From assembly GCA_014762755.1 (NCBI GenBank), contig JABURI010000152.1:592-64591 (forward strand): a stretch of DNA of 64,000 nt. Direction: 5' to 3'. Under the pieces are notes generated by a model. The model saw nothing but the letters and a program-made list of their open reading frames with translations, was not told where the DNA came from and searched no databases. The translations under genes were made by a program, and so were the position numbers. Of the stretch, positions 26,970-43,600 are shown piece after piece. Numbering within the stretch: position 1 is the stretch's first letter; each line of letters opens with the position of its first letter. Source of the DNA: Marinobacter sp. Its GTDB lineage: Bacteria; Pseudomonadota; Gammaproteobacteria; Pseudomonadales; Oleiphilaceae.

Positions 26970-26983
26970 TTGACCTTAATCAA
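26970..26983. promoter_or_regulatory. FNR/ANR/DNR-type box 1
   Basis: TTGAC-CTTA-ATCAA versus consensus TTGAT-N4-ATCAA (one mismatch). Confidence 0.6.
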
Positions 26984-27110: not shown

Positions 27111-27124
27111 TTGACCGTTATCAA
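27111..27124. promoter_or_regulatory. FNR/ANR/DNR-type box 2
   Basis: TTGAC-CGTT-ATCAA, ending 55 bp before ATG 27180. Confidence 0.62.
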
Positions 27125-27179
27125 GACCTGACTTTCCGATCCGGATACAGCGTAAACCAGAAATTGCGAAGAGTAGATC

Positions 27180-28547
27180 ATGCCCGACAGAGCCATTAAC
27201 GAGGTGCTGGATGCTCCCAGTCACGATCGATCAGTGCCCTTGCTCTCGCTATCGGGTTTCGGGGTCGCTTTCGGTGAAAAAACAGTCCTCGCCGACATCA
27301 ATCTGGAATTGCCGGAATGCGGCGTTACGCTGTTGCTTGGGCCTAGCGGTACGGGCAAATCAACTCTGTTGAGAACACTCGCGGGGTTTAATGACGCCAA
27401 CCCTAACCTGAGAACCTGGGGGCGTGCCAGCTATCGTGGCAAGCCGCTCGACTCCACTGTCAAGCGTCCTGTCCTTGCTGCACAAAATGCCCGGCTGATG
27501 ATGGCCAGCATCCTGGAAAACATCGTTCATGATCTGCCCGGCAGAGGACACCTGTCTCCAAGGCAGCAGAGGGAACTCGCCGTAACCATGCTGGAATCCG
27601 CTGGCCTCCAGGAACTCGTCGACCGGATTGATGAGCCAGTCATACAGCTTGAGCTGGCCCAGCAACGTCACCTTGGCATCATGCGGCTGGCAGCAACCGG
27701 CGCCCCTCTGCTTCTAATCGATGAACCCTCGGCGAACATCAGCGAGGCAGACGCTGATCGAATACTCGAATTTATTGCTTCCAAAAGTGCCAGCCGCTCC
27801 GTTTTTCTGGCGGTGCATAACCAGATTCATGCTCGACAAATCGGCGGAGACGCAGTGTTGATAGCCGGTGGCATTGTCCAGGAAAAAGCACCGACAGACA
27901 CTTTCTTCTCGACACCGGTGACTGAGGCGGGAAGAGCATTCGTTCGTACCGGGTCGTGTTCGGTTCCTGCGCCAGACACGGACCCTGATGCACTGGACGC
28001 ATCAACCCCGCCCCCGGCAAAAACGCCCGCTGCCGCCCGAAATTTCGCGAACACCAACTTCGGGCCACGGGGGTTCCTCTGGCTCGAAAAAGGTCGGCTG
28101 GCCGGGATGCCAGGTCTGGGACTCTATGGCGACCTCGACGATGATTTGAAGGCGCTCCGGAACGTCGGAGTCACTACACTGATCAGCCTCACCGAAACAC
28201 CGCCTGACACAGCCAGAATGACCGGATTCGGAATCGAAAGCATCTGGTGCCCTTTCAGGGACGAGGCCGCTCCCGCCATCACTCAGGCAGTCGGTTTGTG
28301 CAAGCAGATCCAGGAGATCACCGGCAATGAAGGGATTGTTGCCATTCAGTGCTGCGCCGGTTTGGGGCGCACTGGAACCATCCTCGCTGCCTTTCTGATA
28401 TGGGAAGGCAGCGAGGCGTTGGATGCACTGGAGACAGTCCGCCAAATGGAGCCGGGCTGGGTGCAATCTGAAGTCCAGGCAAAGTTTCTGGAACGATATG
28501 CCCTGTTCTTAACCGGGCGAAACCACACAAGCAGACTAAAAAACTGA
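27180..28547 (+). CDS. ABC-type ATPase / CX5R (dual-specificity-like) phosphatase fusion, copy 1
   Basis: Walker A GPSGTGKS, Walker B LLLIDEP, H-loop VHN, degenerate signature LELAQQR; Pro-rich linker; PFRDEAAP loop and QCCAGLGRTGT P-loop. Confidence 0.85.
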   Translation: MPDRAINEVLDAPSHDRSVPLLSLSGFGVAFGEKTVLADINLELPECGVTLLLGPSGTGKSTLLRTLAGFNDANPNLRTWGRASYRGKPLDSTVKRPVLAAQNARLMMASILENIVHDLPGRGHLSPRQQRELAVTMLESAGLQELVDRIDEPVIQLELAQQRHLGIMRLAATGAPLLLIDEPSANISEADADRILEFIASKSASRSVFLAVHNQIHARQIGGDAVLIAGGIVQEKAPTDTFFSTPVTEAGRAFVRTGSCSVPAPDTDPDALDASTPPPAKTPAAARNFANTNFGPRGFLWLEKGRLAGMPGLGLYGDLDDDLKALRNVGVTTLISLTETPPDTARMTGFGIESIWCPFRDEAAPAITQAVGLCKQIQEITGNEGIVAIQCCAGLGRTGTILAAFLIWEGSEALDALETVRQMEPGWVQSEVQAKFLERYALFLTGRNHTSRLKN

Positions 28548-28583
28548 TCCAAATCAATTAAACCCAACTAAGCGGAGTTATTA

Positions 28584-28991
28584 ATGTCAAACCTCGATAA
28601 TACTATTCAGCAGGCCATTTCCACCATTCCGGAATGCCTGGCGGGGGGTTATGTGGATCTCAGCAGCGGGATGCTTCTTGGCATCAAGACTGTTGACTCC
28701 CATCCTCAGGAAGTTCTTGAAATGTTGGCCGCTGCAACGGCCGATCTTTTCCAGGGCCCAAACGTGGTAACAATTGAGAACATGTTCAAGAAGTCCCGAG
28801 GCCTGCCACTGGATGATTTCCACTACTTCCAGGAAATCATCGTCAATAGTGAGAACCTGATCCATATTTTCATGCGCACCAAAGAGAACCAGGACCATGT
28901 GGTTACATTTGTGTGTCGCAAATCCGCCAACCTGGGCATGGTTTTAACCAAAGCTCGCGCCGCCCTGCCTAAAGTGGAAGCAGCGCTGTAG
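28584..28991 (+). CDS. Roadblock/profilin-like small protein, type A copy 1
   Basis: IPECLAGGYVDLSSGMLL...EIIV....HIF...ANLGMV pattern; GGAG RBS; paralogue at 35292. Confidence 0.7.
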   Translation: MSNLDNTIQQAISTIPECLAGGYVDLSSGMLLGIKTVDSHPQEVLEMLAAATADLFQGPNVVTIENMFKKSRGLPLDDFHYFQEIIVNSENLIHIFMRTKENQDHVVTFVCRKSANLGMVLTKARAALPKVEAAL

Positions 28992-29059
28992 CCGTTACGT
29001 AGCGACAATTGACCCAAAGCATGAACTCGGGTTCACTGTCAGGGTTTGCAAACTAGAAG

Positions 29060-29461
29060 GTGAACACAATGGGTGATTTTGGTCAGCCACATCCGAAGGC
29101 CAGTGCCGCCCGCTCCATTCTCCGGGAACTCAATGCCTCCTCCTCGGAAATTGAAGCGTCCGCGACCATGACGACAGATGGCTACATCATTGGTGCTGTA
29201 CTGGGCACCACCACTGATGAAGATCGTTTTTCCGCCATGTGCGCTTCGTTGCTGGCTCTGGCTGAGCAGGCGGCCGACGAGATCGGTCGCGGTCAGATGA
29301 AGCAGTTATTGGTGGAGGGAACACAGGGGTTGATGCTTCTGATCCGGGCCGGCGACGACAAGGTACTGGCCCTGGCCGCCAAACCGACCGTCAACCTCGG
29401 TCGGGTATTCCTTGAAGCGCGTAAGTGTGCCGCCAAGATCGACCAGGTGATCAACGGTTAA
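29060..29461 (+). CDS. Roadblock/LC7 (MglB-like) protein, type B
   Basis: IEASATMTTDG, DEDRFSAMCASLLALA, EIGRGQMKQLLVEG..G, VNLGRVFLEAR; start may be ATG 29069. Confidence 0.88.
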   Translation: MNTMGDFGQPHPKASAARSILRELNASSSEIEASATMTTDGYIIGAVLGTTTDEDRFSAMCASLLALAEQAADEIGRGQMKQLLVEGTQGLMLLIRAGDDKVLALAAKPTVNLGRVFLEARKCAAKIDQVING

Positions 29462-29520
29462 GCTCTCTGGCTGACGTGAAATTGGCCGGCAAAAACTCCA
29501 GGGAGTGAAACTGCCTTGCC

Positions 29521-29538
29521 AGGGGGCAAAAGCCCCCT
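29521..29538. terminator. Hairpin between convergent genes
   Basis: AGGGGGC-AAAA-GCCCCCT. Confidence 0.55.
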
Positions 29539-29553
29539 CGCTTTCCATCGAGG

Positions 29554-32352
29554 CTATTCGGACAATTCCGGAAGCAGCTCCGGTTTTCCGAAATGGAAAC
29601 CCTGAAAATAATCCACGTTCATCTGCTGCAGTAACGTCGCAATATCTTCACTGTTCACAAACTCCGCAACGACCTTCGCATCGATCTTGTGAGCAAATTC
29701 AACGATGCTCTCTGTAATCAAACGACTCTTCTCGTCTTCCAGTATCCGCGAAATTATTGAGCCATCGATCTTGATAAAGTCCGGCTGAATTTCGATCAGA
29801 TAGGAATAGTTGGAATAGCCGCTGCCAAAATCATCGATTGCTATCTTCGAATTCCGGGCCCGAACCCCTTCGACAAACTGCTTGACCTTGGCATAGTCCT
29901 GAATGGATTCGGTTTCCGTGATCTCAAATATCAGGTTATGGCCACCGTGAAGCGAAAGCTGCTCCAGAATAAAAGCCGAGATGTCCGGATTTTCCATATC
30001 CTTGGCTGAGAGATTGACGCTGATGGAAAGATTCCGGGAAGACGCAAGGGAAATTGCCTCAGAGATCACCTTCCTGGTTATCTCCGGGTAATAGCGGGAC
30101 TGCTTCGCCAGGTCGAGAAATTGAAGGGGCGGAATGACCTCGCCATTGCGACCGATCATCCGTAACAGGGATTCGTATCGCTCCTCCACCACTCCGCCGC
30201 TTCCCGACACAATCGGTTGATAGAAACTGGTGAGTCGATTCTCCTGGAGAGCTTCTTTGATCTCATTCAGCCAGTAAATGTTCTCAGTGTGATCGAAATC
30301 TTCCTCGCTCAGATCCACCACCTTGTGGGCGATATTTTCCTGCTTGGCTTTTTGCAGTGCTGACTCAGCAAACGTTAACAGGCGCCCCTCTCCACGCCCG
30401 ATACCGAAGAAGAAATCCATGTCAAAGTATTCGCTATTGACAACAAGGGGTTTGCTCTGCAGCTGGGCTGCCAACTCCGAAATATAGCTACTGAAGTCGT
30501 TGTAGGTTATGGAACTATCCGGCAACAAGGCAAAGTGGGCACCATGAAGACGATAGACCGTAATACCTTCGATGGCACAGCGCTGCTCCAGTTCTGCAGC
30601 CAGCTCCACCAGGATGCGGTCTCCCATGGCAATACCGTAGTAGTCATTGAATGATTTGAAACTTCTGACATCCATCAGTGCTAGCTGCAAAGGTTGCAGG
30701 CGCTCGAGGTCCTCTATGAGCCTTGCCCGGCTCGGTAGCCCGGTCAGCTTGTCGGTTCGCTGCTGCGCCAGCTTGCTCTGGTTCAGGATGATCTCGGTAA
30801 TGTCGTTGCGGATGCTGATGAACTCCTCAATGTCACCCGCATGGTCCACGATCGGAACAATCGTGGTGTCGACGTAATAGAAGTCGCCATTTTTTTTGCG
30901 GTTCTTGATGGTGCCCTGCCAGACCTGCCGGTTCAAAATGGTGTCCCACATATCCCGGAACACACTCGCCGGCATGTCCGGGTGACGCAGGATCTGATGG
31001 GTCTTGCCGATCACTTCGTCTCTGGAATACCCGCTGATCAGTTCAAACAGATCATTGACATAGGTAATCCTGCCCTCCGGATCAGTCCTGGTCACGATAG
31101 CCGTCTGATCAAGGGCATGCTTGTACTGTTCCAGAAACTGGACCGAGTTGGTCAGATCCCTGGCTGTCGCATTTGCCAGATGCGTAAGGGAACGGAGTGT
31201 TGAGACCCGCGGGATCGATACTGACAAGTCTTTCGCAGGAAGCTTCGAGACATCACCCTTTTCAGAAAGGGTGACCAGCGTGGTAGTGATATTCAGCAGA
31301 CTGCAATCGGCCCCGGAAGTGAAATATTCGCCGTAAGTAAAGAACCCGGCGTTGGGACCCAATGAGCCAATAGCAGCAATCTCTGCCGAGATGATTGACG
31401 AGAGAAAGGATCTTCGCGCGGTGCACGAGTAGGTATACACTCCCTCGATCGGAAGTTGCCCGGCAAGCCGGTTGACGGTATTGCGAACGCCATCGGTAAT
31501 TGTTTCAACATCGGCTACCCCGAACCGAACACAGTCACCACACTCCAGCTTACCGGCGAATATCAATCCCCCGTCGTCAGTAATGCCCACCGGCGAGCGC
31601 GCCACCAGGAAATCCCCCTGGGTTCGCAGCAGAGGAAACTCCATAAGGGACCGCGGAATGTCCTGTGCAACATCTTCGCCAAGGTAATATTGATACACTT
31701 CCACCGCAGGCTGGTGATTCAGTTCGTATAGAACGTTACCCTTGGCACGAGTGACTTCAAGGGGTACGCCGATAGGCGTCCATTCGAGAACACAGTCGCT
31801 ATGGACTTCCAGTACCTCGCTTCGGAGAACCGCCAGCGCCACGCCTTCGTCATACAGACGATCACCTTCAATAACAAAAGTTCGCTCAAAACGGTTGTTA
31901 TCTCCGGCGTTCCCCCCGGCTATACACAACCCGGGCGCCGCAGCATTGAAGCCTTGGATGAAACTCTCCGGATTGTCCCGCAGACCGTTACCAAAAACGA
32001 GTGCAAGGCGGGCATCACTGTCTCGATATCGACGCCCCCAGGCCCATCCACTGGCATAGGACAAATCCGACGTATAGCCGGTCTCGACGGTCGTCGCCTC
32101 AAAACAGGAGAACGACAGCAAAATACGACCTTCCGACTGGCTACCGCCAAAAATCTCTCCACAGGTTGACGCCCCTGTTATTCGAAAATCCGGGAGCAAA
32201 TCATTGAGTATGCCCAGGAGCGTCCGGACATTGGTTTCGTCCTGGTCACCGGCAAATACCTGCACCAGGCCGGCCTGATCCGCGAGGCCGAGATCGCTGA
32301 CAAACTTCAACAATGATTCCTGATCCTGGCACAGGTGGTTATACAGTTTCAT
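29554..32352 (-). CDS. FIST - PAS - degenerate GGDEF - EAL c-di-GMP phosphodiesterase
   Basis: FIST N/C (GASTCGEI, AGGNAGD, YSCTARR, GFFTYGE); PAS (ISGYS..E.IGKTH.ILRHPDMP..F..MW.TI...W.G...N..K.G); YRLHGAHF replaces GGDEF; ESLLRM, EITETE, DDFGSGYS, KIDGS, AEFV, QGF. Confidence 0.9.
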   Translation of the reverse strand: MKLYNHLCQDQESLLKFVSDLGLADQAGLVQVFAGDQDETNVRTLLGILNDLLPDFRITGASTCGEIFGGSQSEGRILLSFSCFEATTVETGYTSDLSYASGWAWGRRYRDSDARLALVFGNGLRDNPESFIQGFNAAAPGLCIAGGNAGDNNRFERTFVIEGDRLYDEGVALAVLRSEVLEVHSDCVLEWTPIGVPLEVTRAKGNVLYELNHQPAVEVYQYYLGEDVAQDIPRSLMEFPLLRTQGDFLVARSPVGITDDGGLIFAGKLECGDCVRFGVADVETITDGVRNTVNRLAGQLPIEGVYTYSCTARRSFLSSIISAEIAAIGSLGPNAGFFTYGEYFTSGADCSLLNITTTLVTLSEKGDVSKLPAKDLSVSIPRVSTLRSLTHLANATARDLTNSVQFLEQYKHALDQTAIVTRTDPEGRITYVNDLFELISGYSRDEVIGKTHQILRHPDMPASVFRDMWDTILNRQVWQGTIKNRKKNGDFYYVDTTIVPIVDHAGDIEEFISIRNDITEIILNQSKLAQQRTDKLTGLPSRARLIEDLERLQPLQLALMDVRSFKSFNDYYGIAMGDRILVELAAELEQRCAIEGITVYRLHGAHFALLPDSSITYNDFSSYISELAAQLQSKPLVVNSEYFDMDFFFGIGRGEGRLLTFAESALQKAKQENIAHKVVDLSEEDFDHTENIYWLNEIKEALQENRLTSFYQPIVSGSGGVVEERYESLLRMIGRNGEVIPPLQFLDLAKQSRYYPEITRKVISEAISLASSRNLSISVNLSAKDMENPDISAFILEQLSLHGGHNLIFEITETESIQDYAKVKQFVEGVRARNSKIAIDDFGSGYSNYSYLIEIQPDFIKIDGSIISRILEDEKSRLITESIVEFAHKIDAKVVAEFVNSEDIATLLQQMNVDYFQGFHFGKPELLPELSE

Positions 32353-32714
32353 GTTGTCAGCGAAGCCTCGGTTGATAACGGGCGGGAATAAGGTAAGATT
32401 CCCAACCTAGGCAAATACCCATATTTAAAAAAAGGTTATTAAAACTGCCACTGAAATTTTAAGAACAAAATCAGAAAACACCAGCTCAAAACAAAGTTTT
32501 ACATTTGGCAACAAAATACGGCTTAACTGTTGCTAAACACGACATGTCGTATCTTGTGCGCCTGTTCAGGGCTACCTAGAGTATTGTGATGCTTCTGCAG
32601 CACGTTTTTCCAAAGATCCGCATCCGCGAGTAATTGCCCAGTTACTCAACCAGCCAACAACGACGTTGCTGGCCTGGGGCCGTCAAGAAAACTTTACCCG
32701 GACATTCATGGCGT

Positions 32715-33359
32715 ATGGATTCACAGACTCTCACTAACAAATCCCCGGATGCCTCTGTAGCAGCCGCCTATTTCAGTCCAGACGACTATCTGCTCAAGAC
32801 TCTGCAGCGGGCGGTCGCCAACAATCAGGACATTCACATAAGCACCGGGAACACTGGCAGCCTGACAATACTGAGTAGCCGCGGCGAGTATTTCACGGAT
32901 AGCCCGGACCTGCGCGCATTGCTCTGCCAGAGCCCGGATAACTGTCGCGTAAGGATCCTTGGCACCGGAGACCATCAGATCCCGCCGGAATCGAGAGTTG
33001 GGCGGAATATTGACGAGCTGATGTGGCAGGCTGCGTTCTACGTTTCTGATGGCCGGCTGATGGAAGGCTGCAACCAGGCCGACGTGATTCAACTGGATTG
33101 CTGGCCCAACCTGACGCGTCTGCCCCATACCCCCAACAGTTTCCGAATCCTGGCATTGCTTTCAAAACATCCCACCTCGGTGTTCTTTGCCTCCCGGTTA
33201 TTGAAAGTGCCCGCCAGCGAAATCTATCAGATCTACAGTGCAGCCAAGGCTGCAGGTCTCAGTCACGCCATAAACAGAAAGGCTGAAGAGCCCCGCCTGG
33301 AGCCTCATCGCAGCCAATCGTTGCTTTCGTCGCTGTTAAACAAGATTGGCAGGTTCTAG
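32715..33359 (+). CDS. GTPase-associated hypothetical protein (possible winged-helix-like C-terminus and amphipathic tail)
   Basis: ELMWQAA..GRL..LDCWPNLTRL core; ends SLLSSLLNKIGRF; 9 bp from the GTPase start. Start uncertain (TTG 32634 alternative). Confidence 0.65.
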   Translation: MDSQTLTNKSPDASVAAAYFSPDDYLLKTLQRAVANNQDIHISTGNTGSLTILSSRGEYFTDSPDLRALLCQSPDNCRVRILGTGDHQIPPESRVGRNIDELMWQAAFYVSDGRLMEGCNQADVIQLDCWPNLTRLPHTPNSFRILALLSKHPTSVFFASRLLKVPASEIYQIYSAAKAAGLSHAINRKAEEPRLEPHRSQSLLSSLLNKIGRF

Positions 33360-33368
33360 GAGAACGGA

Positions 33369-33902
33369 GTGGAACATAAAATTATCTTTACCGGCCCGGT
33401 CGGGGCTGGCAAAACCACTGCCATCGGCTCAATCAGCGACATTCCCGTTGTCAGTACTGAAAGCAATGCCAGTGACGAGGTGGCCAAACAAAAAGCGACG
33501 ACGACGGTTGCCATGGACTATGGCGTCATGAAGCTCGGAGACGGCCTGAAGGTTCACCTCTACGGCACGCCTGGGCAGGAACGCTTCAGTTTCATGTGGG
33601 ATATCCTCACCATTGGCGGCCTGGGCATCGTGATCCTGGTTGATAATGATCGCGAGGATCCGCTGGCCGACCTGGAATTCTATGTCCGTGCTTTCGAGAA
33701 GTTCATCAAAAAAAATGCTCTCGTCGTCGGTGTTACCCGCATGGACACGAAGCCCCGCCCGGGACTCTATTCCTACCATACCCGGCTCTCCGAGCTGGGT
33801 ATTCAGGCTCCTGTCTTTGAGGTGGATGCCCGCGAGCAAGTAGACGTCTCCATCATGCTTCAGGCGCTACTCGCCATGCTGGACCCGGGGGCGCAACGAT
33901 GA
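33369..33902 (+). CDS. Small Ras-like GTPase, MglA/CvnD (ATP_bind_1) type
   Basis: G1 GPVGAGKTT, G2 TTVAMDYG, G3 YGTPGQERF.FMW, G4-like TRMD, G5-like VDAR; GGAG RBS. Confidence 0.92.
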   Translation: MEHKIIFTGPVGAGKTTAIGSISDIPVVSTESNASDEVAKQKATTTVAMDYGVMKLGDGLKVHLYGTPGQERFSFMWDILTIGGLGIVILVDNDREDPLADLEFYVRAFEKFIKKNALVVGVTRMDTKPRPGLYSYHTRLSELGIQAPVFEVDAREQVDVSIMLQALLAMLDPGAQR

Positions 33903-35236
33903 CCCCGGGCGACTCGGCGGACTCCACCCCTCCGGTATTATCCCTGCGAGGGTTCGGCGTCGGCTTCGGAGAAAAGACCATCCTCGCCAGCCTCGACCTG
34001 GACATCCCCGACCGGCAGGTGGCCATCCTCCTCGGGCCGGCCGGAACCGGAAAATCAACGCTGCTCCGAACCTTGAGTGGTTATAACGATGCCAGCCCCA
34101 ACCTCAGGACCTGGGGCGAGGCAACCTATCTGGGCAATCCCATTTCCACCAGAGAGCGCCCGGCGCTTGTGGCCCAGAATACCCGCATGATGATGTCCAG
34201 CGTTCTGGAGAACATCATCCATGACCTCCCTGAGCGCCAGGGACTCTCCCCCCTGCAGCAACGGCAACTGGCAATACGTCTTCTGGACTCCGCCGGCCTG
34301 GAGGAACTCATTGAGCGAATCGATGAGCCGGTAGTCCACCTGGACCTTGCCCTGCAAAGGCACCTGGCCATCATGCGCATGGCGGCTACCGGCTCCAGAC
34401 TGTTAATGCTGGACGAACCAACCACCGGGCTCAGCGAGCCGGAGGCGAAGCGGCTATTGGGGTGCATCGCTGATGAAGGGCGAAAACGCTCGATCATTGT
34501 TGCCTTGCATAACCTGGGCCACGCGCGACAACTCGCGGGCAACATCCTCTTACTGGCAGGTGGCAACATTCAGGAAGTAACGCCCACCGAAGAGTTTCTG
34601 ATAAAGCCGGGCACCGATGCAGGGCGGGCGTTCATTCGATCCGGATCCTGTTCCTTGCCGGATCCCGATACGGATCCGGAAAGTCTTGATCCTGAGGCCC
34701 CCCGACCGGCTGTTATCCCGGCAAAGGCGAAACAGTATGTGAGCGACAGTTTCGGACCAAGGGGGTTCGTCTGGCTCCACAAAGGGTTATTGGCCGGCAC
34801 CCCCCGACCGGGCATCGTTCAGGATCTTGAGTATGACCTCAAGGCATTGCGCCGGGTCGGTGTAACAAACCTGATCACGCTGACCGAAACGCCACCTGAA
34901 GTCGAGGCGTTGAAAGCCTTCGGCATTGAAAACATCTGGTCCCCCTTTCCCGATATGGCACCTCCCACTGAGGCACAGGCGCTGGATCTCTGCGAAAAGA
35001 TCCACCAAATCAACAATGCCGGGGGCGTTGTGGCTGTGCACTGTCGCGCAGGCCTGGGAAGGACCGGAACCATCTTGGCCGCCTACCTAATCTGGGAGGG
35101 CGCCGAGGCACTGGAAGCATTGGAAGCAGCCCGGCGCATTGAACCGCGCTGGGTCCAGTCAGAAGCCCAGGCAGAGTTCCTGGAGCAATTCGCCCGGTTT
35201 CTTGCCGGGCGAAAACAGGCCGTACAGGTGTCTTGA
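33899..35236 (+). CDS. ABC-type ATPase / CX5R phosphatase fusion, copy 2
   Basis: GPAGTGKS, LLMLDEPTTGL, LHN, degenerate signature LDLALQR; LAGTPRPG, PFPDMAPP, HCRAGLGRTGT; ATGA overlap with the GTPase. Confidence 0.88.
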   Translation: MTPGDSADSTPPVLSLRGFGVGFGEKTILASLDLDIPDRQVAILLGPAGTGKSTLLRTLSGYNDASPNLRTWGEATYLGNPISTRERPALVAQNTRMMMSSVLENIIHDLPERQGLSPLQQRQLAIRLLDSAGLEELIERIDEPVVHLDLALQRHLAIMRMAATGSRLLMLDEPTTGLSEPEAKRLLGCIADEGRKRSIIVALHNLGHARQLAGNILLLAGGNIQEVTPTEEFLIKPGTDAGRAFIRSGSCSLPDPDTDPESLDPEAPRPAVIPAKAKQYVSDSFGPRGFVWLHKGLLAGTPRPGIVQDLEYDLKALRRVGVTNLITLTETPPEVEALKAFGIENIWSPFPDMAPPTEAQALDLCEKIHQINNAGGVVAVHCRAGLGRTGTILAAYLIWEGAEALEALEAARRIEPRWVQSEAQAEFLEQFARFLAGRKQAVQVS

Positions 35237-35291
35237 GATACAGCCACCAAATAAACGATAACAACACTATACAAGACAGGAGAATTCATCG

Positions 35292-35696
35292 ATGAGCCTT
35301 GAAGACGCCATTCAGAAGTCCATTACCGAGATCCCGGAGTGCCTTGCGGGGGGTTATGTGGATCTGACCAGCGGCATGCTGCTGGGTATTAAAACCGTCG
35401 ATTCCCACCCCCAGGAAGTTCTCGAAATGCTCGCGGCAGCCACAGCAGACCTGTTCCAGGGTCCCAACGTGGTGACCATCGAGAATATGTTCAAAAAAGC
35501 CCGCGGGCTTCCAATGGATGACTTCCACTACTTCCAGGAAATCATCGTTAACAGCGAAAACCTGATCCACATCTTCATGCGCAGCAAGGCAAATCAGGAA
35601 CACGTGGTAACCTTTGTTTGCCGCCGCACAGCAAACCTCGGCATGGTACTGACCAAGGCCCGTGCAGCATTGCCGAAAGTCGAGGCTGCTCTCTAG
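35292..35696 (+). CDS. Roadblock/profilin-like small protein, type A copy 2
   Basis: 119 of 134 residues identical to 28584-28991 by manual alignment; AGGAG RBS. Confidence 0.72.
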   Translation: MSLEDAIQKSITEIPECLAGGYVDLTSGMLLGIKTVDSHPQEVLEMLAAATADLFQGPNVVTIENMFKKARGLPMDDFHYFQEIIVNSENLIHIFMRSKANQEHVVTFVCRRTANLGMVLTKARAALPKVEAAL

Positions 35697-35727
35697 CAAA
35701 TCGGTATCTGGTTAACTGCCAGGTACA

Positions 35728-35755
35728 AAGCCAGTGCTGTCAGCAGCACTGGCTT
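35728..35755. promoter_or_regulatory. Perfect 12-bp intergenic stem-loop without U-tract
   Basis: AAGCCAGTGCTG-TCAG-CAGCACTGGCTT. Confidence 0.55.
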
Positions 35756-35785
35756 CCATGAATTTGCCGGAAGAGACACTGCTGT

Positions 35786-36646
35786 ATGTATACCATCGAA
35801 TATCAAGGCCAGAACTACCAATGCAGGGGTGACGAAACCATCCTGGAGGCCATGCTGAGGCATGGAGTCAAGTTTCCCTTCTCGTGTCGAAAGGGCTCTT
35901 GTCATGCCTGTATTCATGTTGCCCAAAAAGGACGTCTCTCGGAAGAATCCCAGAAAGGACTCGATAGCCAGAAAAAAGATGAGGGTTGCTTCCTACCATG
36001 TCTTTGCCGCCCTGTAGACGACATGGTGATTGCTGCTCGACCGAAGCGCACCGGAACCAGGAGCGCCACTTCGCCGGAGAAGAGCGAAAGTGACGTCGTC
36101 AGCCCGGATCCGGAGATGTGGCAGGCTCTCGGGGAAGGATCAGTGCTCACCGCGGTACTGGAAGATTTCTATGGAAGGGTGTACGACGATCCCCGCCTGG
36201 CACCGTTTTTTCATGGCGTAACCATGAGACGCGCAATCGAGAAACAGTACCTGTTCCTGCGACAGAAGTTCACAGGCGAGAAAGTCTACTTCGGTGACCG
36301 CCCTCGCAATGCCCATCACTGGATGGTGATCTCCAACGAGCTGTTTGACTACCGCGAATCCATTATGGTGGATTGCTTACGCCGTCAGGGTCTGCCTGAA
36401 CATCTGATTGCCCGTTGGCGGGCGTTGGAGAACAGCTTCCGCGGAGACATCGTCAAGGATAAAGCCTGGAACCGGAAAATCGGTGATATCGAAATCCCGG
36501 TTTCGGGCTTCGATGAGGTCACCCTTGACGTCGGCTCCCTTTGCGACAGCTGTGGCAACGAGATTGATGCCGGTGTCACGGTCCGCTATCACCTGAGGCT
36601 TGGTACCCTGTATTGTCCGGACTGCATGTACTCCATCGGGGAGTAA
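35786..36646 (+). CDS. 2Fe-2S ferredoxin - group I truncated hemoglobin - Cys4 finger fusion
   Basis: SCRKGSCHAC...LPC; LGEG..L.AVLEDFY.RVYDDPRLAPFF...Q..FL....G...Y.G....AH; CDSC...YCPDC. Confidence 0.82.
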   Translation: MYTIEYQGQNYQCRGDETILEAMLRHGVKFPFSCRKGSCHACIHVAQKGRLSEESQKGLDSQKKDEGCFLPCLCRPVDDMVIAARPKRTGTRSATSPEKSESDVVSPDPEMWQALGEGSVLTAVLEDFYGRVYDDPRLAPFFHGVTMRRAIEKQYLFLRQKFTGEKVYFGDRPRNAHHWMVISNELFDYRESIMVDCLRRQGLPEHLIARWRALENSFRGDIVKDKAWNRKIGDIEIPVSGFDEVTLDVGSLCDSCGNEIDAGVTVRYHLRLGTLYCPDCMYSIGE

Positions 36647-36766
36647 CAAAAGCGCTGCCGATATCAGATTCCGGTCCGTTATTGTAAACCAGCTCACACT
36701 GGTTACGTGATGACCGGTTTGGTGAGCTGGAGACCGTACAGTAACAGCCGTCGGACGTCAGTCCCG

Positions 36767-39697
36767 TCAGGGACTGACGTCAAATACTCCGTGCACCACT
36801 TCGTCACCATCAGCGTCCGTGATCACTGCGGTAATGACATGCTGGCCTGCCAATCCCTCAAAACTGAATCCGTACGCATCGCGCGGAGGCTTAGTAACCG
36901 TGCCCGCGAAATCCCAGGGGGCACGGTTTTCCACCTTGATCGGACTACCCAGCCGGTCCGGATCGTCCAGATAGAACGCCACTCTCTTCATGCCTTCAAT
37001 GTCAGGCACAAAGATGTACGCCTCGCCGCTCAAGCTTGAGCCGTCAAGGGGCACAGGATTACTTCGGTCCGCCGCCAGGGATACCGCAAGTGTGTATAAA
37101 GAGGGTTGGTCATAGACCAGACTGACCGGGACCGTCAGCTGCTCCCCCGTCTCCGCTTCAATCACGACAGCCGCCTGGTACTGGCCGGAGGAGAGCGCCG
37201 AGGCATCGGCGGTCAGGACTAGCGTTTCAGGTAGCACTCCGGTAGGGGACTCGACGCCCAGCCAGGCCGCCGTGCTGCGCGCGCTGTAGCTCGGGTTGCT
37301 GCCATCGGTCATCTGTATCAGGACATCCTGCTCGGCCAGTGACTGGGGCGGCGTTAGCCCGAACAAAACGCTGTCCGGGGTGGCATCCAGATTCGGGACG
37401 TCATTGGCCACCATGAATCCGGCCGACACCAGAACCTCAAGCCCCCCGGAAATCGTGAGGCGAGCGCCAAGTACGTGGCCACCGTCCGCCAACGCCCCGG
37501 TGTCATAGGGGTAAGCGGTATCATCGGCGGCGGTGCCGGCGAGATCGAACGGGGGCACATTCTCGGTCTTGGTGACAACGCCGGTACCGGTCGGATCGTC
37601 CATGTAAAAACGCACCTGGCTAACGTCGGTATCCGGACTGGTGAAAATGTATTGTTCACCCTGCAAGATGGTGCCTTCCAGGGGAACGGCTCCCGCCCGC
37701 TCGGGGCTGTTCGACACCCAGATTCCGTAACTGGAAGCGCCAACGCGCAACACCACCGGCACCCAGGTGGCGCTGTCCTCCCCGGCAGTGATCTGCAGGA
37801 TGCCACGGTACTCACCTACCGCCAAACTGGAGGCATCCGCCACTATCTCCACACTTGCCGGCGTCACTCCTGAGGCCTGTGACAGCGACAACCAGTCTGG
37901 AATCTGGGTAATTTCGAAGTCCAGTGCAGCGCCATCGCCACCGGTCACGTTCAGGCTTTCAGAAACTACGTCACCCGGCTCGGCCATTAGTGCAATCTGC
38001 CGAGGCTGCGCCAGCACCTCCGGCGCACAGCCATTCACGTCATACCGGACCCGATCTATCTGTAGCGGCACCGAACCATCGCCTTCAACTCCGAACACAT
38101 CCACATCAAGCGTGCCCGTGGCCGTTACTGAAAGATGAGCGAAATGGTGCAACGTATTGTTCCGGAATACCGTCCAGGCAGGCGGCTCGGACGTACGCCA
38201 GGGCGAGAAGTCGAGAGAGATATTGCTGAGCTTGCCACCGGGGGCAACCTTCAGCCAGCTCACACCATCCTCTGGGCCATAACAATGGCGATTGTCTGAC
38301 GTTGGCGTGTTCGTGGCAGGCACATTGACCAGCGGATAGGTTCGCTCATAGGACTGATCGTGGGCAGTGAGCACCACCTGGACACCTGCAGCTTCAAAGA
38401 TCGGCCCGAGCTGGCCTCGAAGTGGCAGGGCAGAGGAATGATTGGTGCCTTCTGAGAATGGGGCCGCGTGCAGATAAGGTACCAGCCAGCGCTGGCCACG
38501 GCCTTTGGCAGCTGCCAGATCGGCGCTCAGCCAGTCCAGCGCATCCTGTGGAAGTTGCTCGTACTCATTCAGTCCGAAGATCGATACAAAATGGACCTCA
38601 CCAGCATCAAAACTGTACATCCGACGACCATTCCAACCCTCGGGTGTCACAAAATAATTGACCCAAGTACCAAACCCCTCCCCCAATAGCACTTCATGGT
38701 TACCGTAGGTCGGCATCATCGGGCTTTGACTGGCGATTGCCGACATCTGGTCAAACCAGGCGGCAATAGAGCGCTCGAGGGTGACATAGCGCTTATCGGT
38801 ATTGAAATAGGCGTAGTCACCGCCCAAAAGCACCAACCGCGGATTGCGCCGGGCAATCTCGAGAATCACCTGCTCTGTTCCGGTGGCCAGCCCGTCAAGA
38901 CGACCGACCAGGCCGGTATCGGCAACAAAAACTGCATCAAAGTCCGCGGGCCCCGGTGCAGGTGCGGTATAACTCTCGTATACCCGACTCCAAACATTCG
39001 GGGCAAGCGCCGCACGAAACTCATAACGCGTATCAGCAAGCAGGCCCTCAAGGTTGACCAACAGATACTGACCATCAGCTGTGGAGTGACTGACGGTACC
39101 ACTGGCCTGCTCCCAGGCACTCTCACCAGCCCGACGGTAGCTCACCGTCGCCGGGGTTCCCGCAAGCGGCGAGAACCACATCACTGCCAGCGATCCGGAA
39201 GGATCGCCTTGCCAACCGGTGTGCAGCTGCCCTGCCTCACCGCCCGGCTCCGGTGGCGGCTGGTTGGCAATCTGCATCAGCCCTTGAAGGGTCTGTACCA
39301 CCGAACCACCCTGGTACAACTCGGCACTGACCCGGTAGTTGCCATCCACCAGGTTGCGGGTGTCGTAAGGGTAGGCCAGATCATCGGGGGTGGTGCCGGC
39401 AAAATCCCAGGGTATGCGGTTTTCAGTCTTGACGAGGGTCCCGTCCAGATAGAAACGTACCTGATCCGCCGCATTGGCATCGCCCACGAAGATATACACC
39501 TGGTCCTGTAACGGCGCCGTCTCAAGGCTCTGGGGCGAGCTTCGATCCGATGACAGCGACACCAGTAACTCGGCGGCAGATACACGCAGTGGTATAAGGG
39601 CCAGCACCAAAAACAGGATGAAGAACCATCCAGTAGCACACGTCAATGAACGGGCGTGGCGGGGGAAAGTAAAGATGCGCCGAACCATAACGACCAC
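36767..39697 (-). CDS. Secreted purple-acid-phosphatase-like metallophosphoesterase with repeated beta-rich domains
   Basis: Signal peptide ending VSA; FN3-like PAP N-domain; ADTG, GGDYAY, GNHE, YLH, AHDQSYER; three KxENxxP(W/F)D(F/L)AGT repeats; two BACON-like segments. Start may be ATG 39688. Confidence 0.8.
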   Translation of the reverse strand: MVVMVRRIFTFPRHARSLTCATGWFFILFLVLALIPLRVSAAELLVSLSSDRSSPQSLETAPLQDQVYIFVGDANAADQVRFYLDGTLVKTENRIPWDFAGTTPDDLAYPYDTRNLVDGNYRVSAELYQGGSVVQTLQGLMQIANQPPPEPGGEAGQLHTGWQGDPSGSLAVMWFSPLAGTPATVSYRRAGESAWEQASGTVSHSTADGQYLLVNLEGLLADTRYEFRAALAPNVWSRVYESYTAPAPGPADFDAVFVADTGLVGRLDGLATGTEQVILEIARRNPRLVLLGGDYAYFNTDKRYVTLERSIAAWFDQMSAIASQSPMMPTYGNHEVLLGEGFGTWVNYFVTPEGWNGRRMYSFDAGEVHFVSIFGLNEYEQLPQDALDWLSADLAAAKGRGQRWLVPYLHAAPFSEGTNHSSALPLRGQLGPIFEAAGVQVVLTAHDQSYERTYPLVNVPATNTPTSDNRHCYGPEDGVSWLKVAPGGKLSNISLDFSPWRTSEPPAWTVFRNNTLHHFAHLSVTATGTLDVDVFGVEGDGSVPLQIDRVRYDVNGCAPEVLAQPRQIALMAEPGDVVSESLNVTGGDGAALDFEITQIPDWLSLSQASGVTPASVEIVADASSLAVGEYRGILQITAGEDSATWVPVVLRVGASSYGIWVSNSPERAGAVPLEGTILQGEQYIFTSPDTDVSQVRFYMDDPTGTGVVTKTENVPPFDLAGTAADDTAYPYDTGALADGGHVLGARLTISGGLEVLVSAGFMVANDVPNLDATPDSVLFGLTPPQSLAEQDVLIQMTDGSNPSYSARSTAAWLGVESPTGVLPETLVLTADASALSSGQYQAAVVIEAETGEQLTVPVSLVYDQPSLYTLAVSLAADRSNPVPLDGSSLSGEAYIFVPDIEGMKRVAFYLDDPDRLGSPIKVENRAPWDFAGTVTKPPRDAYGFSFEGLAGQHVITAVITDADGDEVVHGVFDVSP

Positions 39698-39845
39698 CTC
39701 CCGGGGATAGGATCGGGGGACCGTAAAAGTTCAGCATATTCAGTGCCAGCTTTCTAAGCGCCTGAAAGATTTCCCGAAGTAAACTCATCGGGGATGCTGG
39801 CGGCATCGAGCTGTATAATTCTCCGACGCTTTTGATTTGCAGAAC

Positions 39846-39885
39846 GAAAAAAGGGGGACTCAGCCATCCCTGGCCGAGACCCTTT
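39846..39885 (-). terminator. Intrinsic terminator of the beta-barrel gene
   Basis: Minus strand CTCGGCCA-GGGA-TGGCTGAG, then TCCCCC and TTTTTT. Confidence 0.7.
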
Positions 39886-39890
39886 CACCA

Positions 39891-40469
39891 TTAGAACTGG
39901 TACTTCAGGCCGACCCGGCCGGTATCAAACTCCGGTCCGTCGTTGGTGACCTGCCCGTTGAAGTCATCCTCGTCCACATCCACGTTGTAGCGGTTGTACT
40001 CTGCAAACGCCGTCAACTGCGGCGTCACCCGGAAGTCCACACCGGCGCCGACAAAGGGACTGACCTCGTCGTAGGTCTCGCTTTCATCGAACGCATCCAC
40101 ATCCAGTGCGGAGACGAACGCACCCGCCTTGCCGTAGACCCCGAAGCTGTCAGTCAGCGGCAGCCGCCCGACGGCACTGAGCCCGGCGCCCTTGAGCTTG
40201 GCATCCACGTCGTCCTCGCCGAAGTTGCCGAAATCGATGTACTCCGCTTCCAGGGCAAAGAATGGTGTGAACTGGTAGCCCAGCGCAACACCCAGCAGAT
40301 CGTTCTCATCCTCGAACTCACCGCCGTGGGACTTGTAACCACCGTAACTACCGCTGATATAGGGGCCAGCCGGATCACGGCTGACGCTGTCCTGTGCCCA
40401 CACAGCTGGCGCTGTCGCAACCGCTGCAGTCAAAACCGTGGCATACGCAAAACGTGCTTTAAAGCTCAT
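39891..40469 (-). CDS. Outer-membrane beta-barrel protein (OmpA-transmembrane-like)
   Basis: Signal peptide AVWA; GYQFTPFFALEAEY; C-terminal VGLKYQF beta-signal. Confidence 0.88.
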   Translation of the reverse strand: MSFKARFAYATVLTAAVATAPAVWAQDSVSRDPAGPYISGSYGGYKSHGGEFEDENDLLGVALGYQFTPFFALEAEYIDFGNFGEDDVDAKLKGAGLSAVGRLPLTDSFGVYGKAGAFVSALDVDAFDESETYDEVSPFVGAGVDFRVTPQLTAFAEYNRYNVDVDEDDFNGQVTNDGPEFDTGRVGLKYQF

Positions 40470-40657: not shown

Positions 40658-43600
40658 TCAATAAAGACTTCGCGGTATCCGGTACCCCGCCAGCAGCTGT
40701 TGCGTGAAGGGGTTGGTCGTGCTGGCGGCATGCAGGCGGTACTTCATTTCGCCATCGTCCACCCGAAACCTGACATCCACGGCATTACTGCTGACTCCTG
40801 TGATGTCTGCCTGGCCCAACATCCTGAACAGGGCCCAGGGGCCGCTCTCGGAGATGCTCCGTGGCGAGCGGTTGACCTGGACTGGTACCAACGTAATGCG
40901 GGTTTCCACGGCATCTCGCAGCGTGTTGGGCCATATCAGCGGAATGTTCTGGCGCGGGCCATGGGAGAACTCCACCAGCTGGCCATCGATATTCGCCACC
41001 GAGCGCCGTTTGTTGTTGCTCAGGTTCAGGGGTTCCAGGGCAAACTCCACGTCCAGCGTACCACTGCGGGTGAAGAACGCCTGTCGAATCTGCCGGGCCC
41101 GATCCAGCGCGGCGACCACATCCCGTCGTACCAGGCTGGCCCGGCGGGCGTCGCCCACATGCTCCGGATGGTCTTCGAGGAACAATCTCAGGTTGTCGTT
41201 GTAGAAGGTTTCCAGAATGCCATCCGGGGCGAAGAAACGCTCGAAATCCTGCAGTGCAGCGTCACGCCCTGCGCCCTGGGTGAACGGATAGTGCCGGGCC
41301 AGATTCTGCTGGAACGGCTGGTAAACCTCGCGATACCAGTCCCGCTCCAGCTGTGCCACGGCACTGTCCAGGACAACCCGCCAGCTTTCTGTGGCCAGGC
41401 GGTTGAGTATCCGGTTCAGGAGTGCCGGCTGATGGCCGGCCATGCGCTGCAGGGTAAAGATGGGGTCGGCCCCCTGCAGGCCCATACGGGCACGGGCGGC
41501 GCTCAGGGCAGCTTTGCCAGTATCCGGCGATTCCTGGATATTGCGCATGTATTCATGCAGCTCCGTCACCACCAGCATGACTTCCTCCAGGCCAGAGCGC
41601 TTTTCGCCCTGTTTGCGGGTGAGCTGGTTCAGGTCGCTGAACTGGCGCTCGATGTCCTGCAGCATGCGGTAATGGGGGGACTGCTCAAGCAATTTGCGTG
41701 CGGCTTCCGCTTCGCCTTCACCTACCGGTATCAGGCGGGTGTTTTCCCGCACCTGGGCCAGCAATCTGGCCAGCGGCTGGTGGCCACTGGTCAGGCTGTC
41801 GAGAATACGGACCCCGTGGTTCAGGTCCTCAAACCGATGGATATCCAGCCGGCTCAGCGCCGTGCGCCAGGCCTCGGCATAGTGCTCAGCGTACAGGGTC
41901 TGCAGACTGGCCAGCAGCTCGGCCTCATCGGCCTTGCTGAAATCAACATCATCCCGGCGGCCCAGCACCCAGGCGTCAACTAAGGCCAGTTCGGTGACCG
42001 ATCCGGATTCCCGCAGGAACCACTTTTCCAGACCTTCCCGGGTCAACAGTGCCGGAATCGAGAGCGGATCCTGTGCAGACGGCACATCCTCGGCAAGCGG
42101 TTCGCCATAACTGTCCAGGCGTGTGAACACCGTGGAGAACGCCGGGCCGGAGCTGCGGGCCAGTTCCAGCGGCGTCGGGAAATCACGGCTGGCCTCGTTC
42201 TCCAGCTCACGGTACACGCGGTCTGAGGTGCTGATACGGCCAAGCTCATGCTGTGCCCATTCGACACTGCTGCGGAAAGGCGCCAGAGCCATCGTGGCGG
42301 TGGAGTCGCCGTTAGCTGCCAGGTCCGAAAGGTCCGTGTGGGCCATGGCGTATTGCAGGTGCCCGTATAGACGATTCTGCACATCGCGCTGGCCGGGGAA
42401 CCGGGCCTGCCAGTACTCACGCATGTAACCGGACACAATGTCGGTACGGCGGCCGCTGGCATCGTACAGCATCCGGAGCACGCGCAGGTGTTCGAGCCGC
42501 TCTGTGCTGTTATCCGGCGCCTGTCCCATTTCTTCCATCACCCCGAACATCAGCGCAGGCAGATATTGATAGGCCAGCATGTTCAGGTAGGCCTTATCCA
42601 CTTCCGGGCCCACCTTGTGCCCCTGGTACAGCCCCATATCGGTGACCAGTGGCCACTCCTTGCGGTAATCGCCGAAGGCCAGGGTAGCGTCCCGCAGCTC
42701 ATCCAGCGGTTGCAGCAGATTACGGCCAGTGGTGTCCGGCTCGTAGCCAACCGGCTGCCAGTCATTGAGATAGCTTTTGACCCGACTTTCCACCTGGGCG
42801 GCCGCTTCGGCATTCTGAAGAAAATAATGCTGCCAGCCTGCTGTTATGCCCGCACCGGCGGCCAGGGCCACCACGGCGGCAACGGCGACCCGGCGATGAC
42901 GCTGGCGCACCACCCGCCGGTTATCACCGGCCAGGCCCGCCTCCGGATAGATGATCCCGGGGAACAGGCCCTTGGTGAACAGGCTCGCAGACTGGCCGCC
43001 GCGCTGGGCCGGTTGGATCGGGTCCGACATCTGGTAGTTCCGGGCGGCGGCCGAGACGAAGGCATCCTCAGGCACACCTTCCTGCAACACCGAGGTCAAG
43101 TAGGTGCCGCGTACCAGCGCCGGTGTGGAGAAGGCATCCGCCGACAGCAAATCGGTCAGGAACTGCTCCATGGCCGTCTTCAGGCCCGCCAACTGGCGGG
43201 TGAACGAATAGGCCGCTGCCCGTTCTTCGTTATCACGGGTGTTGGCCAGCACGTCCGGCAGGCGTTCAGTGAGCTCATCCACCATATCGGCGTAACGCTC
43301 GGCAAACTGTTCCAGCCACTGGTCCTGATCCTGCTGGCCGTCCAGCCGGAAGGTGAAACCCAGCGCCTTGTCTTTCTCGGCTTTGCTGAGGGTACGCACA
43401 AAGGGCGCAAAGCCATACATCAGGTCCATCTTGGTGAAGGTCACATACACCGGCAGGCGGGACCCCAACTGTTCCATCAGCTCCCGCAGGCGAGTGCGCA
43501 GGAGAATGGCGTGGGCTTCACGCTGTTGTTCGTTGGCGGCACTCAGGCGGGCAAGATCCACGGCCAGGACGACGCCGTTGAGCGGCCGCTGGGGGCGACT

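Follow-up and report, generated by a model that had tools for sequence, protein, structure and literature searches.

In a 64,000-nucleotide stretch of Marinobacter sp. DNA (assembly GCA_014762755.1, contig JABURI010000152.1, positions 592 to 64,591; hereafter the window), the gene at 33899..35236 on the + strand encodes a 445-residue protein in which an ATP-binding cassette (ABC) ATPase domain is joined to a cysteine-based phosphatase domain. This fusion and the gene that follows it, encoding a 134-residue protein (Y134; 35292..35696, +) with a predicted Roadblock/LC7 (MglB-like) fold, make up a fixed two-gene module. On balance, the fusion is probably a soluble ABC-phosphatase without a permease that, together with its Roadblock-fold partner, supplies a switch built on a Ras-like (Group 3 MglA) GTPase with a phosphatase arm gated by nucleotide, and it is very likely that the system is a cytoplasmic signalling module rather than a transporter, a toxin or a defence effector. 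The original prediction for this DNA had read the ABC domain as a nucleotide-sensing or GTPase-docking regulator of the phosphatase. That reading stands in outline, with no transporter genes nearby, the ATP-site motifs that act in trans lost and those that act in cis kept, yet it missed Y134, the stricter partner.

The ABC-type ATPase domain spans residues 12–250 of the fusion (33932..34648, +; Pfam, Foldseek and NCBIfam), followed by a Pro/Asp-rich linker at residues 251–285 (34649..34753, +) and a DUSP23-like Cys phosphatase domain at residues 286–445 (34754..35233, +; Pfam and phmmer against PDB). All strings quoted in the original prediction, namely GPAGTGKST, LLMLDEPT, VALHNLGHA, VHLDLALQRH, RTLSGYNDASPNLR, EEFLIKPGTDAGRAFIRSG, SLPDPDTDPESLDPEAPRP, PFPDMAPP and HCRAGLGRTG, were found in the translation of this open reading frame (ORF), and the linker it described, which reads SLPDPDTDPESLDPEAPRP, does join two domains that Pfam supports (ABC_tran, and PF22785/PF22784/DSPc). 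The AlphaFold2 model of the fusion was confident per residue, with a predicted local distance difference test (pLDDT) value of 89.5 that falls to 64–88 in the linker. No membrane-like segment was present (Kyte-Doolittle maximum of 1.03 over 19 residues), and a hydrophobic leader looked for by hydropathy was not found, the N-terminus being the ABC domain itself. The best 120 homologues were 434–463 residues long and all contained the same Pfam pair of ABC and phosphatase domains, displaying one single architecture.

Pfam ABC_tran matched residues 31–176 of the fusion (E 1.9e-14, 54.9 bits against a cut-off of 25). In an alignment of 32 ABC-phosphatase sequences, G46, G49, G51, K52 and S53 of the Walker A motif GPAGTGKST (residues 46–54; 34034..34060, +) were invariant, as were the D172-E173-P174 end of Walker B with its catalytic Glu (34412..34420, +), which is followed by TGLS, and the H-loop His204 (34508..34510, +), bearing out the claim that Walker A, Walker B and the H-loop are intact. 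The Q-loop residue Q93 was kept in at least 90% of the same sequences. The LSGGQ signature motif completes the ATP site of the partner subunit in ABC dimers. At the corresponding place (residues 148–155; 34340..34363, +) the fusion has LDLALQRH for LSGGQQQR, and the HMMER alignment to the solved amino-acid ABC ATPase 4u00 sets "hLDLALqrh" against "qLSGGQQQRV"; the other copy of the fusion in the window has LELAQ here, within IQLELAQQRH. The replacement of the signature noticed in the original prediction was confirmed by a controlled count, in which the pattern [LM]S.G[QE] was sought 20–35 residues upstream of Walker B and occurred in 0 of 27 ABC-phosphatase domains versus 21 of 21 controls, comprising 12 of 12 other ABC domains from the same genome and 9 of 9 PstB proteins of relatives. 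The only match to the pattern in the ABC-phosphatase set was VSFGE of P0089, which sits elsewhere, near the N-terminus. The D-loop was replaced as well, reading DEPTTGLS in the window and [TS]-x-[LMI]-x in relatives versus S-x-LD (SALD) in the controls. The loss of the signature is thus more than chance and is family-wide. Judged by these motifs, the residues expected to bind and hydrolyse ATP in cis are kept across the ABC-phosphatase family, and the signature and D-loop, predicted to act in trans, are gone. In the gamma-proteobacterial clade, the former signature place is occupied by a conserved L-x-L-[AG]-x-QRH.

The C-terminal part of the fusion resembles small dual-specificity phosphatases. 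Residues 287–429 matched the Cys-phosphatase models PF22785 (1.9e-19, 70.6 bits) and PF22784 (5e-17, 62.8 bits), each with a cut-off of 27, and DSPc (39.4 bits, cut-off 33.5) and Y_phosphatase (30.8 bits, cut-off 20.9) were also passed. The best PDB matches in phmmer were a dual-specificity phosphatase family protein (25xa_A, 2.3e-20) and DUSP23 (2img, 2.6e-15). The acid loop PFPDMAPP and the phosphate-binding loop HCRAGLGRTG, both predicted earlier, are present, and across the 32 sequences Asp352 of the former (34952..34954, +) and C382, G385, G387 and R388 of the C382-X5-R388 loop (35042..35062, +) were invariant, together with T389 behind it. All catalytic residues of the phosphatase are retained in the family. 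With the DUSP23/VHZ-type enzymes and small prokaryotic dual-specificity phosphatases (2img, 4erc, 25xa and 5z5a; E 2.3e-20 to 1e-12) the domain shares the HCxxGxGRTG loop, a length of about 150 residues and, some 30 residues ahead of the P-loop, an acid loop of the form P-x-x-D-x-x-P with its Asp. It differs from them in being fused behind an ABC ATPase and in its family-specific flanks, FGPRGF-x-WL preceding the domain and RWVQSE-x-Q-x-x-FL following it.

Y134 matched no Pfam or NCBIfam family. Its structural model (pLDDT 87.9) shows the order alpha-beta-beta-alpha-beta-beta-beta-alpha, and the 25 Foldseek rows listed for it (ranks 1 to 44) were all Roadblock/LC7, MglB, MglC or LAMTOR proteins, with a best E value of 3.7e-07; the top structures were a Streptomyces Roadblock/LC7 protein (3kye), MglB (1j3w and 3t1r) and LAMTOR. 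Profile-profile comparison of Y134 with the second Roadblock family of the cassette aligned 33 C-terminal columns only (probability 74%), so the predicted fold rests on the model and on Foldseek. In the ESM Atlas, Y134 and X241, the protein encoded at the head of the operon, fell into unnamed clusters; the score of 0.89 that a Roadblock cluster reached for Y134 serves as a lead only.

The neighbourhoods of the fusion were compared in 28 listed loci, consisting of 22 from a scan of a genome collection (5 of 64 parts covered, giving at least 22 loci with the fusion) and six further genomes from a whole-genome search. Homologues were sought by tblastn with the window proteins, and the partner counts are lower bounds, several loci ending at contig borders. 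A Y134 homologue lay directly downstream of the fusion in 27 of the 28 loci and within the locus in all 28; the exception, a clostridial locus (L024), carries two Y134 copies 3 kb upstream. These homologues were 59–78% identical to the window copy across classes, even where the fusion itself was 29–40% identical. Among about 300 sampled genomes of the class, 5 of 300 had the fusion and 5 of 301 had Y134; both sets consist of the same five genomes (G000, G108, G152, G246 and G288), with equal copy numbers of the two genes and adjacent placement. Because six of the listed loci keep the fusion and Y134 without an adjacent GTPase, gene order favours the Roadblock protein over the GTPase as the direct partner. 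In addition, one locus (L015:3396-4172) contains a 94-residue C-terminal fragment of the fusion and a second, identical Y134 gene after the first copy, a local duplication or an assembly repeat.

Natural variants provide a further view of the module. A search for longer proteins containing Y134 yielded P0124 (610 residues), which comprises a Dynamin_N-type GTPase domain (residues 23–165, 43 bits), a phosphatase and Y134. Its phosphatase belongs to the same subfamily (47% identical, including the flanks FGP..F.WL and W.Q.E.Q..FL), and its C-terminal Y134 domain is 69% identical. P0124 thus joins the phosphatase and the Roadblock domain in one chain, and its N-terminal NTPase demonstrates that this position can be held by another class. 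Since a dynamin-like GTPase stands there in place of the ABC domain, the variant suggests that the ABC domain is an exchangeable nucleotide switch. The same search gave P0123, a fusion of a PAS domain with Y134. An exhaustive search with the phosphatase domain returned 207 representative clusters at E <= 1e-30, and ABC_tran preceded the phosphatase in 25 of the 31 representatives chosen for unusual length. P0170 (1456 residues) contains an N-terminal Ser/Thr/Tyr protein kinase, an ABC domain and the same type of phosphatase in one polypeptide. Two Walker B motifs about 300 residues apart, pointing to tandem ABC domains, were seen in 7 of 18 inspected long relatives (P0153, P0179, P0190, P0216, P0238, P0152 and P0209; 755–1903 residues, with large N-terminal regions that received no assignment). 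A canonical LSGGQ was found in 0 of these 18, two of which have LS[PL]GE, and the degenerate signature is therefore a trait of the wider ABC-phosphatase assemblage. The 603-residue P0262 consists of four tandem phosphatase domains of the same type. P0270, a candidate fusion of GTPase, ABC and phosphatase, was rejected, its ABC part being garbled, with frameshift-like stretches and no Walker B.

Directly upstream of the fusion lies a gene for a small Ras-like GTPase of the MglA Group 3 type (33369..33902, +; Pfam ATP_bind_1, Roc and Ras), whose stop overlaps the start of the fusion by 4 nt (ATGA) and whose profile matched Rab/Ras structures. A GTPase gene was found directly upstream in 19 of the 27 listed loci with upstream DNA, and the family occurred in 45 of 301 class genomes, including all five with the fusion. 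By its motifs, the GTPase was compared with the published description of Group 3, having in the alignment the deviant G4 motif GVTRMD and the "DAR"-type G5 motif VDAR. The head of the operon is X241 (ORF 32634..33359, +; likely true start ATG 32715, giving 214 residues), a protein without known family that had no Pfam or NCBIfam match and no PDB profile match at E <= 1; a homologue stood upstream of the GTPase in 12 of the 28 loci. A scan for promoters and terminators returned fewer sites than in shuffled sequences, and a promoter-like site at 32372-32399, before X241, was not significant. A search for sequencing runs covering 32600-36700 listed seven DNA entries from three studies and no RNA entry. 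Behind Y134, the last gene of the block encodes a protein with a 2Fe-2S ferredoxin and a truncated-globin domain (35786..36646, +; Pfam Fer2 and Bac_globin), homologues of which were present in the cassette in 15 of the 28 loci. A Roadblock/LC7 (MglB-like) protein of a second type is encoded at 29060..29461 (+; Robl_LC7, 8.6e-13), with homologues in 16 of the 28 loci. Taken together, X241, GTPase, ABC-phosphatase, Roadblock, Roadblock and ferredoxin/globin, in this order, constitute a frequent operon. A possible, looser associate is a FIST-PAS-GGDEF-EAL protein (29554..32352, −; Pfam), encoded between the two sets of cassette genes in the window; PAS-GGDEF-EAL relatives lay beside the cassette in 4 of the 28 loci (L009, L108, L109 and L110).

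This gene order resembles that of the Group 3 MglA systems of beta- and gamma-proteobacteria, for which the available portion of Wuichet & Sogaard-Andersen 2015 (PMC4316618) describes a "DUF" gene, an MglA homologue and one or two MglB homologues. The likeness covers the succession of a protein of unknown family, a Ras-like GTPase and one or two Roadblock/MglB genes, and extends to GVTRMD and VDAR, the same portion of that paper describing a deviant G4 and a "DAR" G5 for MglA Groups 2 and 3. X241 would, by position, be the "DUF" of the Group 3 systems. The "DUF" was assigned a REC-like N-terminus and a winged-helix C-terminus by Phyre2 in the part of PMC4316618 at hand; for X241, such domains would follow by analogy, resting on that paper and on X241 being its "DUF". 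The word "phosphatase" occurs 0 times in the accessible text of PMC4316618, and its Supplementary file 3, as far as available, contains no phosphatase or ABC gene either. In that file, 43 of 44 Group 3 rows lack a two-gene gap between MglA and MglB, and Pnap_0367 ("<MglB--<MglA<DUF") is the only Group 3 row there with the gap expected from an ABC-phosphatase cassette. The known systems and the present one also differ in frequency, the GTPase family being found in 45 of 301 class genomes and the ABC-phosphatase/Y134 pair in only 5, so the pair is a rare, probably mobile add-on to a commoner GTPase system.

These observations suggest the following working model. The ABC domain would serve as a switch and not as a motor, binding ATP and perhaps hydrolysing it slowly, a nucleotide switch being preferred to a closing dimer because the ATP residues acting in cis are kept and those acting in trans are lost. 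The overlapping start with the GTPase gene, the adjacency of the two genes in most loci and the domain swap in P0124 fit such a role. The former LSGGQ surface may be re-used for a new contact, since L-x-L-[AG]-x-QRH is conserved there in the gamma-proteobacterial clade, and Y134 is the prime candidate for that contact, or else could scaffold the fusion to the GTPase, by analogy with MglB-MglA and Ragulator-Rag. On its own or paired with the second Roadblock protein in a heterodimer, Y134 might regulate or scaffold both this ATPase and the GTPase, much as MglB acts on MglA. The activity or targeting of the phosphatase toward a phosphoprotein would then depend on the nucleotide state, a phosphoprotein being the most likely type of substrate because the closest solved relatives are small dual-specificity phosphatases and one relative is fused to a protein kinase. 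The ferredoxin-globin protein may deliver a redox or gas input, and the PAS-GGDEF-EAL proteins of some loci may provide a link to cyclic di-GMP. A bolder and rather doubtful extension is that the ABC domain behaves like a G protein, with Y134 docking on the face that lacks LSGGQ and the D-loop, setting the ATP state of a monomer and thereby gating the tyrosine/dual-specificity phosphatase; with the GTPase, the second Roadblock protein and the ferredoxin-globin protein, the whole would amount to a signalling device run by two nucleotides, ATP and GTP, for which no bacterial example has been described.

Several points weigh against the nucleotide-gated phosphatase model. The kept catalytic Glu and His would also suit a working ATPase that still dimerises, and the inter-domain arrangement in the AlphaFold2 model of the fusion is uncertain (predicted template modelling score, pTM, 0.68). 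The GTPase link is not obligatory, 7–8 of the 27 loci with upstream DNA lacking an adjacent GTPase. Cys phosphatases of the same fold can act on lipids, nucleotides or carbohydrates. Moreover, the cassette is sporadic (5 of 300 class genomes and 3 of 61 genus genomes) and lies in low-GC DNA, a pattern that is also typical of defence and conflict islands.

The relation of the ABC domain to PstB bears on whether the fusion could still serve a transporter. PstB (TIGR00972) was the best NCBIfam family for both window copies (101.1 bits for the present fusion and 110.6 bits for the other; cut-off 343.2) and for 17 of 19 relatives, the exceptions being L016 and L020. The best Foldseek matches of the fusion model were E. 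coli PstB structures (9k3s_C, E 3.3e-18; 9k3x_C, TM 0.87; TM 0.84–0.87 on the target), and BLASTP against the PstB of the genus gave 25% identity over 250 residues, including an LR.L...ND stretch after Walker A. On the TIGR00972 model, the 19 relatives scored only 65–130 bits and ordinary non-PstB ABC ATPases 150–240 bits, and a single-sequence PDB search placed an amino-acid ABC ATPase (4.3e-18) ahead of PstB (1.6e-15). The fusion also differs from PstB in having no MSGGQ signature, no SALD D-loop and no pstSCA neighbours. In a maximum-likelihood tree of 48 ATPase domains with fixed domain cuts (27 fusion, 9 PstB and 12 others of the same genome; PstB_L098 and PstB_L104, being wrong ORFs, L082, with an in-frame TGA, and L105-L107, not true PstB, were left out), the fusion domains formed one clade (97/91) and PstB another (100/99), the fork joining them being open; the row nearest to the fusion clade was an ordinary LSGGQ-bearing ABC domain of the same genome (92/62), and the approximately unbiased (AU) test did not reject a joint PstB and fusion clade (p 0.28). 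The "PstB-like" segments of the original prediction are thus upheld in part: PstB is the best family and the best structure match, the score is far below cut-off, and the tree comparison it had proposed leaves the fork to PstB open. PstB ancestry is a reasonable lead that the sequence comparisons suggest. As separate observations, no PstB above cut-off was found in the genome of the window itself (best 242.5 bits; assembly 82% complete), 11 of the 13 genomes from the set of relatives had a PstB that passed the family cut-off, and an ABC ATPase gene of the same genome with one in-frame TGA (G000:C167:1269-2060) was excluded from the analyses. That the fusion is an orphan PstB-derived transporter ATPase acting on a permease encoded elsewhere (e.g. 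PstCA), with the phosphatase as an add-on for phosphate metabolism, could draw on the PstB matches, on the AU result and on the large purple-acid-phosphatase-like gene that adjoins the block, yet it is highly improbable: the scores are below those of ordinary ABC ATPases, the signature and D-loop needed for a closed dimer are lost, the tree leaves the PstB link open, and natural variants carry a GTPase domain instead of the ABC domain, or two ABC domains within a single soluble protein. Nor are transporter genes at hand. Neither a permease nor a binding protein was found by Pfam and NCBIfam among the ORFs of the 26–40 kb block, as the original prediction had stated, and no ABC permease or binding-protein family was found by Pfam among 122 ORFs within 3.2 kb of the fusion in the 22 loci, so that none of these homologues sits with a permease, the arrangement that would have spoken for a transporter; major facilitator superfamily genes occurred near the fusion at L018, L020 and L024 only.

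The sporadic occurrence just noted and the low-GC stretch would equally suit an anti-phage or conflict system in which an ABC-type NTPase senses an invader and frees an effector phosphatase under the regulation of the GTPase and Roadblock proteins. In PADLOC the ATPase gave weak matches to mad3/mad8/AriA (20–39 bits); these and the names of the best Pfam phosphatase models, which refer to toxin and "Swiss Army Knife" proteins, point the same way. This explanation is nevertheless unlikely: the PADLOC matches are short and of generic P-loop/ABC type, with the five partner proteins having none, the identity of Y134 across classes does not fit rapidly evolving conflict genes, the accompanying proteins (ferredoxin-globin, PAS-GGDEF-EAL and a protein kinase fusion) belong to signalling and redox biology, and no nuclease, protease, TIR or other usual effector was found in the cassette among the 22 loci. 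That the protein is a secreted effector phosphatase of the polymorphic-toxin or type VI kind, as might be read from the homologue name "phosphatase domain-containing putative toxin", from PF22785 as the best Pfam match and from the TssM/IcmF gene 5 kb off, has very little probability. The protein has no N-terminal trafficking or secretion domain or hydrophobic leader and begins with the ABC domain; its phosphatase is not an exchangeable toxin cassette, the best 120 homologues sharing one architecture; no VgrG, PAAR, Hcp or other secretion family occurred in the 122 ORFs of the 22 loci; and its constant neighbour is a Roadblock-fold protein at 59–78% identity, unlike variable immunity genes. 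The last alternative leaves architecture and partners as proposed and changes the substrate to a phospholipid, a nucleotide or alarmone, or an inositol- or polyphosphate-type compound, delivered or sensed by the ABC domain. Cys phosphatases with an HCxxGxGRT loop include PTEN, PTPMT1 and Siw14-type enzymes, and relatives of the fusion gave weak extra Pfam matches to the PTP-like phytase and NAD-kinase-associated PTP (protein tyrosine phosphatase) families; against this, the closest solved relatives by sequence (25xa_A and DUSP23) are small protein-type dual-specificity phosphatases, and P0170, with a Ser/Thr/Tyr protein kinase in the same chain, points to protein phosphorylation, so that a non-protein substrate is regarded as rather improbable.

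The phosphoprotein-directed switch proposed here has partial parallels in known systems. PhnK and PhnL of C-P lyase (PDB 7z15-7z18) are likewise soluble, permease-less ABC domains acting on a cytoplasmic enzyme. They appeared among the Foldseek matches of the fusion model at ranks 10, 13, 34 and 35. Their working dimer interfaces are kept, and they are not known to be fused to the enzyme they serve or to have GTPase or Roadblock partners. The actinobacterial conservon (CvnA kinase-like, CvnB Roadblock, CvnC and CvnD GTPase) shares the combination of a PF03029 GTPase, a Roadblock protein, a small protein and an ATP-binding signalling enzyme, and the best structure match of Y134 is the Streptomyces protein 3kye; it differs in that its ATP-binding enzyme is a histidine-kinase-like membrane protein, in place of the ABC-phosphatase, and no DUF742 match was found in the present system. 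We know of almost no outputs for the Ras-like GTPase/Roadblock modules of prokaryotes outside Myxococcus and the Streptomyces conservon. For such modules, the cassette offers a concrete enzymatic output, a predicted Cys phosphatase, and a testable set of partners. If the proposed reading is true, the fusion would clearly exemplify how an ABC ATPase domain that has lost the closed-dimer motifs can be put to new use as a soluble regulatory switch, and its co-inherited Roadblock protein may represent a new type of ABC-domain regulator. Nor is the family small, with its 207 phosphatase-domain clusters mostly joined to ABC domains.

The domain pair is already in public databases under automatic names, the homologues being called "ATP-binding cassette domain-containing protein", "atypical dual specificity phosphatase", "phosphatase domain-containing putative toxin", "ABC transporter" or "vitamin B12 import ATP-binding protein BtuD". 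For this family, "ABC transporter", "BtuD" and "putative toxin" are probably misleading, and the name "toxin" is without support for the fusion. What is new is that a Ras-like GTPase/Roadblock module comes with an ABC-phosphatase enzyme not described before and with a Roadblock partner dedicated to it. Full-text literature searches, whose coverage left out most subscription journals, returned no account of the ABC-phosphatase fusion or of its tie to MglA/Roadblock genes, and the terms "Tc-R-P", "DSP" and "tyrosine phosphatase" are absent from the first 300,000 characters of PMC3482391. A globin fused to a Roadblock domain does exist in HGbRL, as described in the available portion of PMC4476040.

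The window holds a second set of these genes. Copy 1 of the fusion (27180..28547, +; 455 residues, assigned by ORF and Pfam) is 60% identical to copy 2, the fusion described above, and reads QCC where copy 2 has HCR, with Q for H just ahead of the catalytic Cys. Its Roadblock-fold partner Y135 (28584..28991, +) is 87% identical to Y134. Block 1 consists of fusion, Y135 and Roadblock genes and lacks the GTPase and X241; block 2 runs from X241 through GTPase, fusion and Y134 to ferredoxin-globin and lacks the second Roadblock gene. One complete cassette, X241, GTPase, fusion, Y, Roadblock and ferredoxin-globin, is present in another genome of the genus (G358), and the window appears to hold a partly duplicated cassette whose two blocks have lost complementary genes. 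The fusion was found in 3 of 61 sampled genomes of the genus. The stretch 26000–40000 has a GC content of 0.53–0.59 versus 0.61–0.64 in its flanks, which is consistent with acquired DNA, and the cassette lies there between cysK (25327-26787) and an OmpA-like gene with TssM. Taken as a whole, the 26–40 kb block encodes a cysteine synthase, the two fusion copies, three Roadblock-type proteins of small size, the FIST-PAS-GGDEF-EAL protein, X241, the GTPase, the ferredoxin-globin protein, a large metallophosphatase, an OmpA-like barrel and TssM. The metallophosphatase, which comes right after block 2 (36767-39697, −), is a 976-residue protein with purple-acid-phosphatase N, metallophosphatase and Ig/BACON-like domains by Pfam. 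A 249-residue metallophosphatase gene stands directly before the fusion in the clostridial locus L024, possibly a coincidence with that of the window. The TssM/IcmF type VI secretion gene (40658-44251, −) is 5 kb from the cassette, and no secretion genes were found near the fusion in the 22 other loci.

Individual loci show further arrangements of the companion genes. In L004:9301-10911 and L005:9455-11017, FAD- and NAD-binding oxidoreductase domains are inserted between ferredoxin and globin, resembling flavohaemoglobin with another domain order. In an Ideonella metagenome-assembled genome (L016:3892-4914), a protein kinase fused to a cyclic-nucleotide-binding domain is encoded 2 kb upstream of the GTPase-fusion pair. 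In an Acinetobacter metagenome-assembled genome (L019:7001-8511), the fusion appears as two ORFs of 325 residues (ABC) and 145 residues (phosphatase), either a split gene or a frameshift, followed by Y134, ferredoxin-globin and a Roadblock gene.

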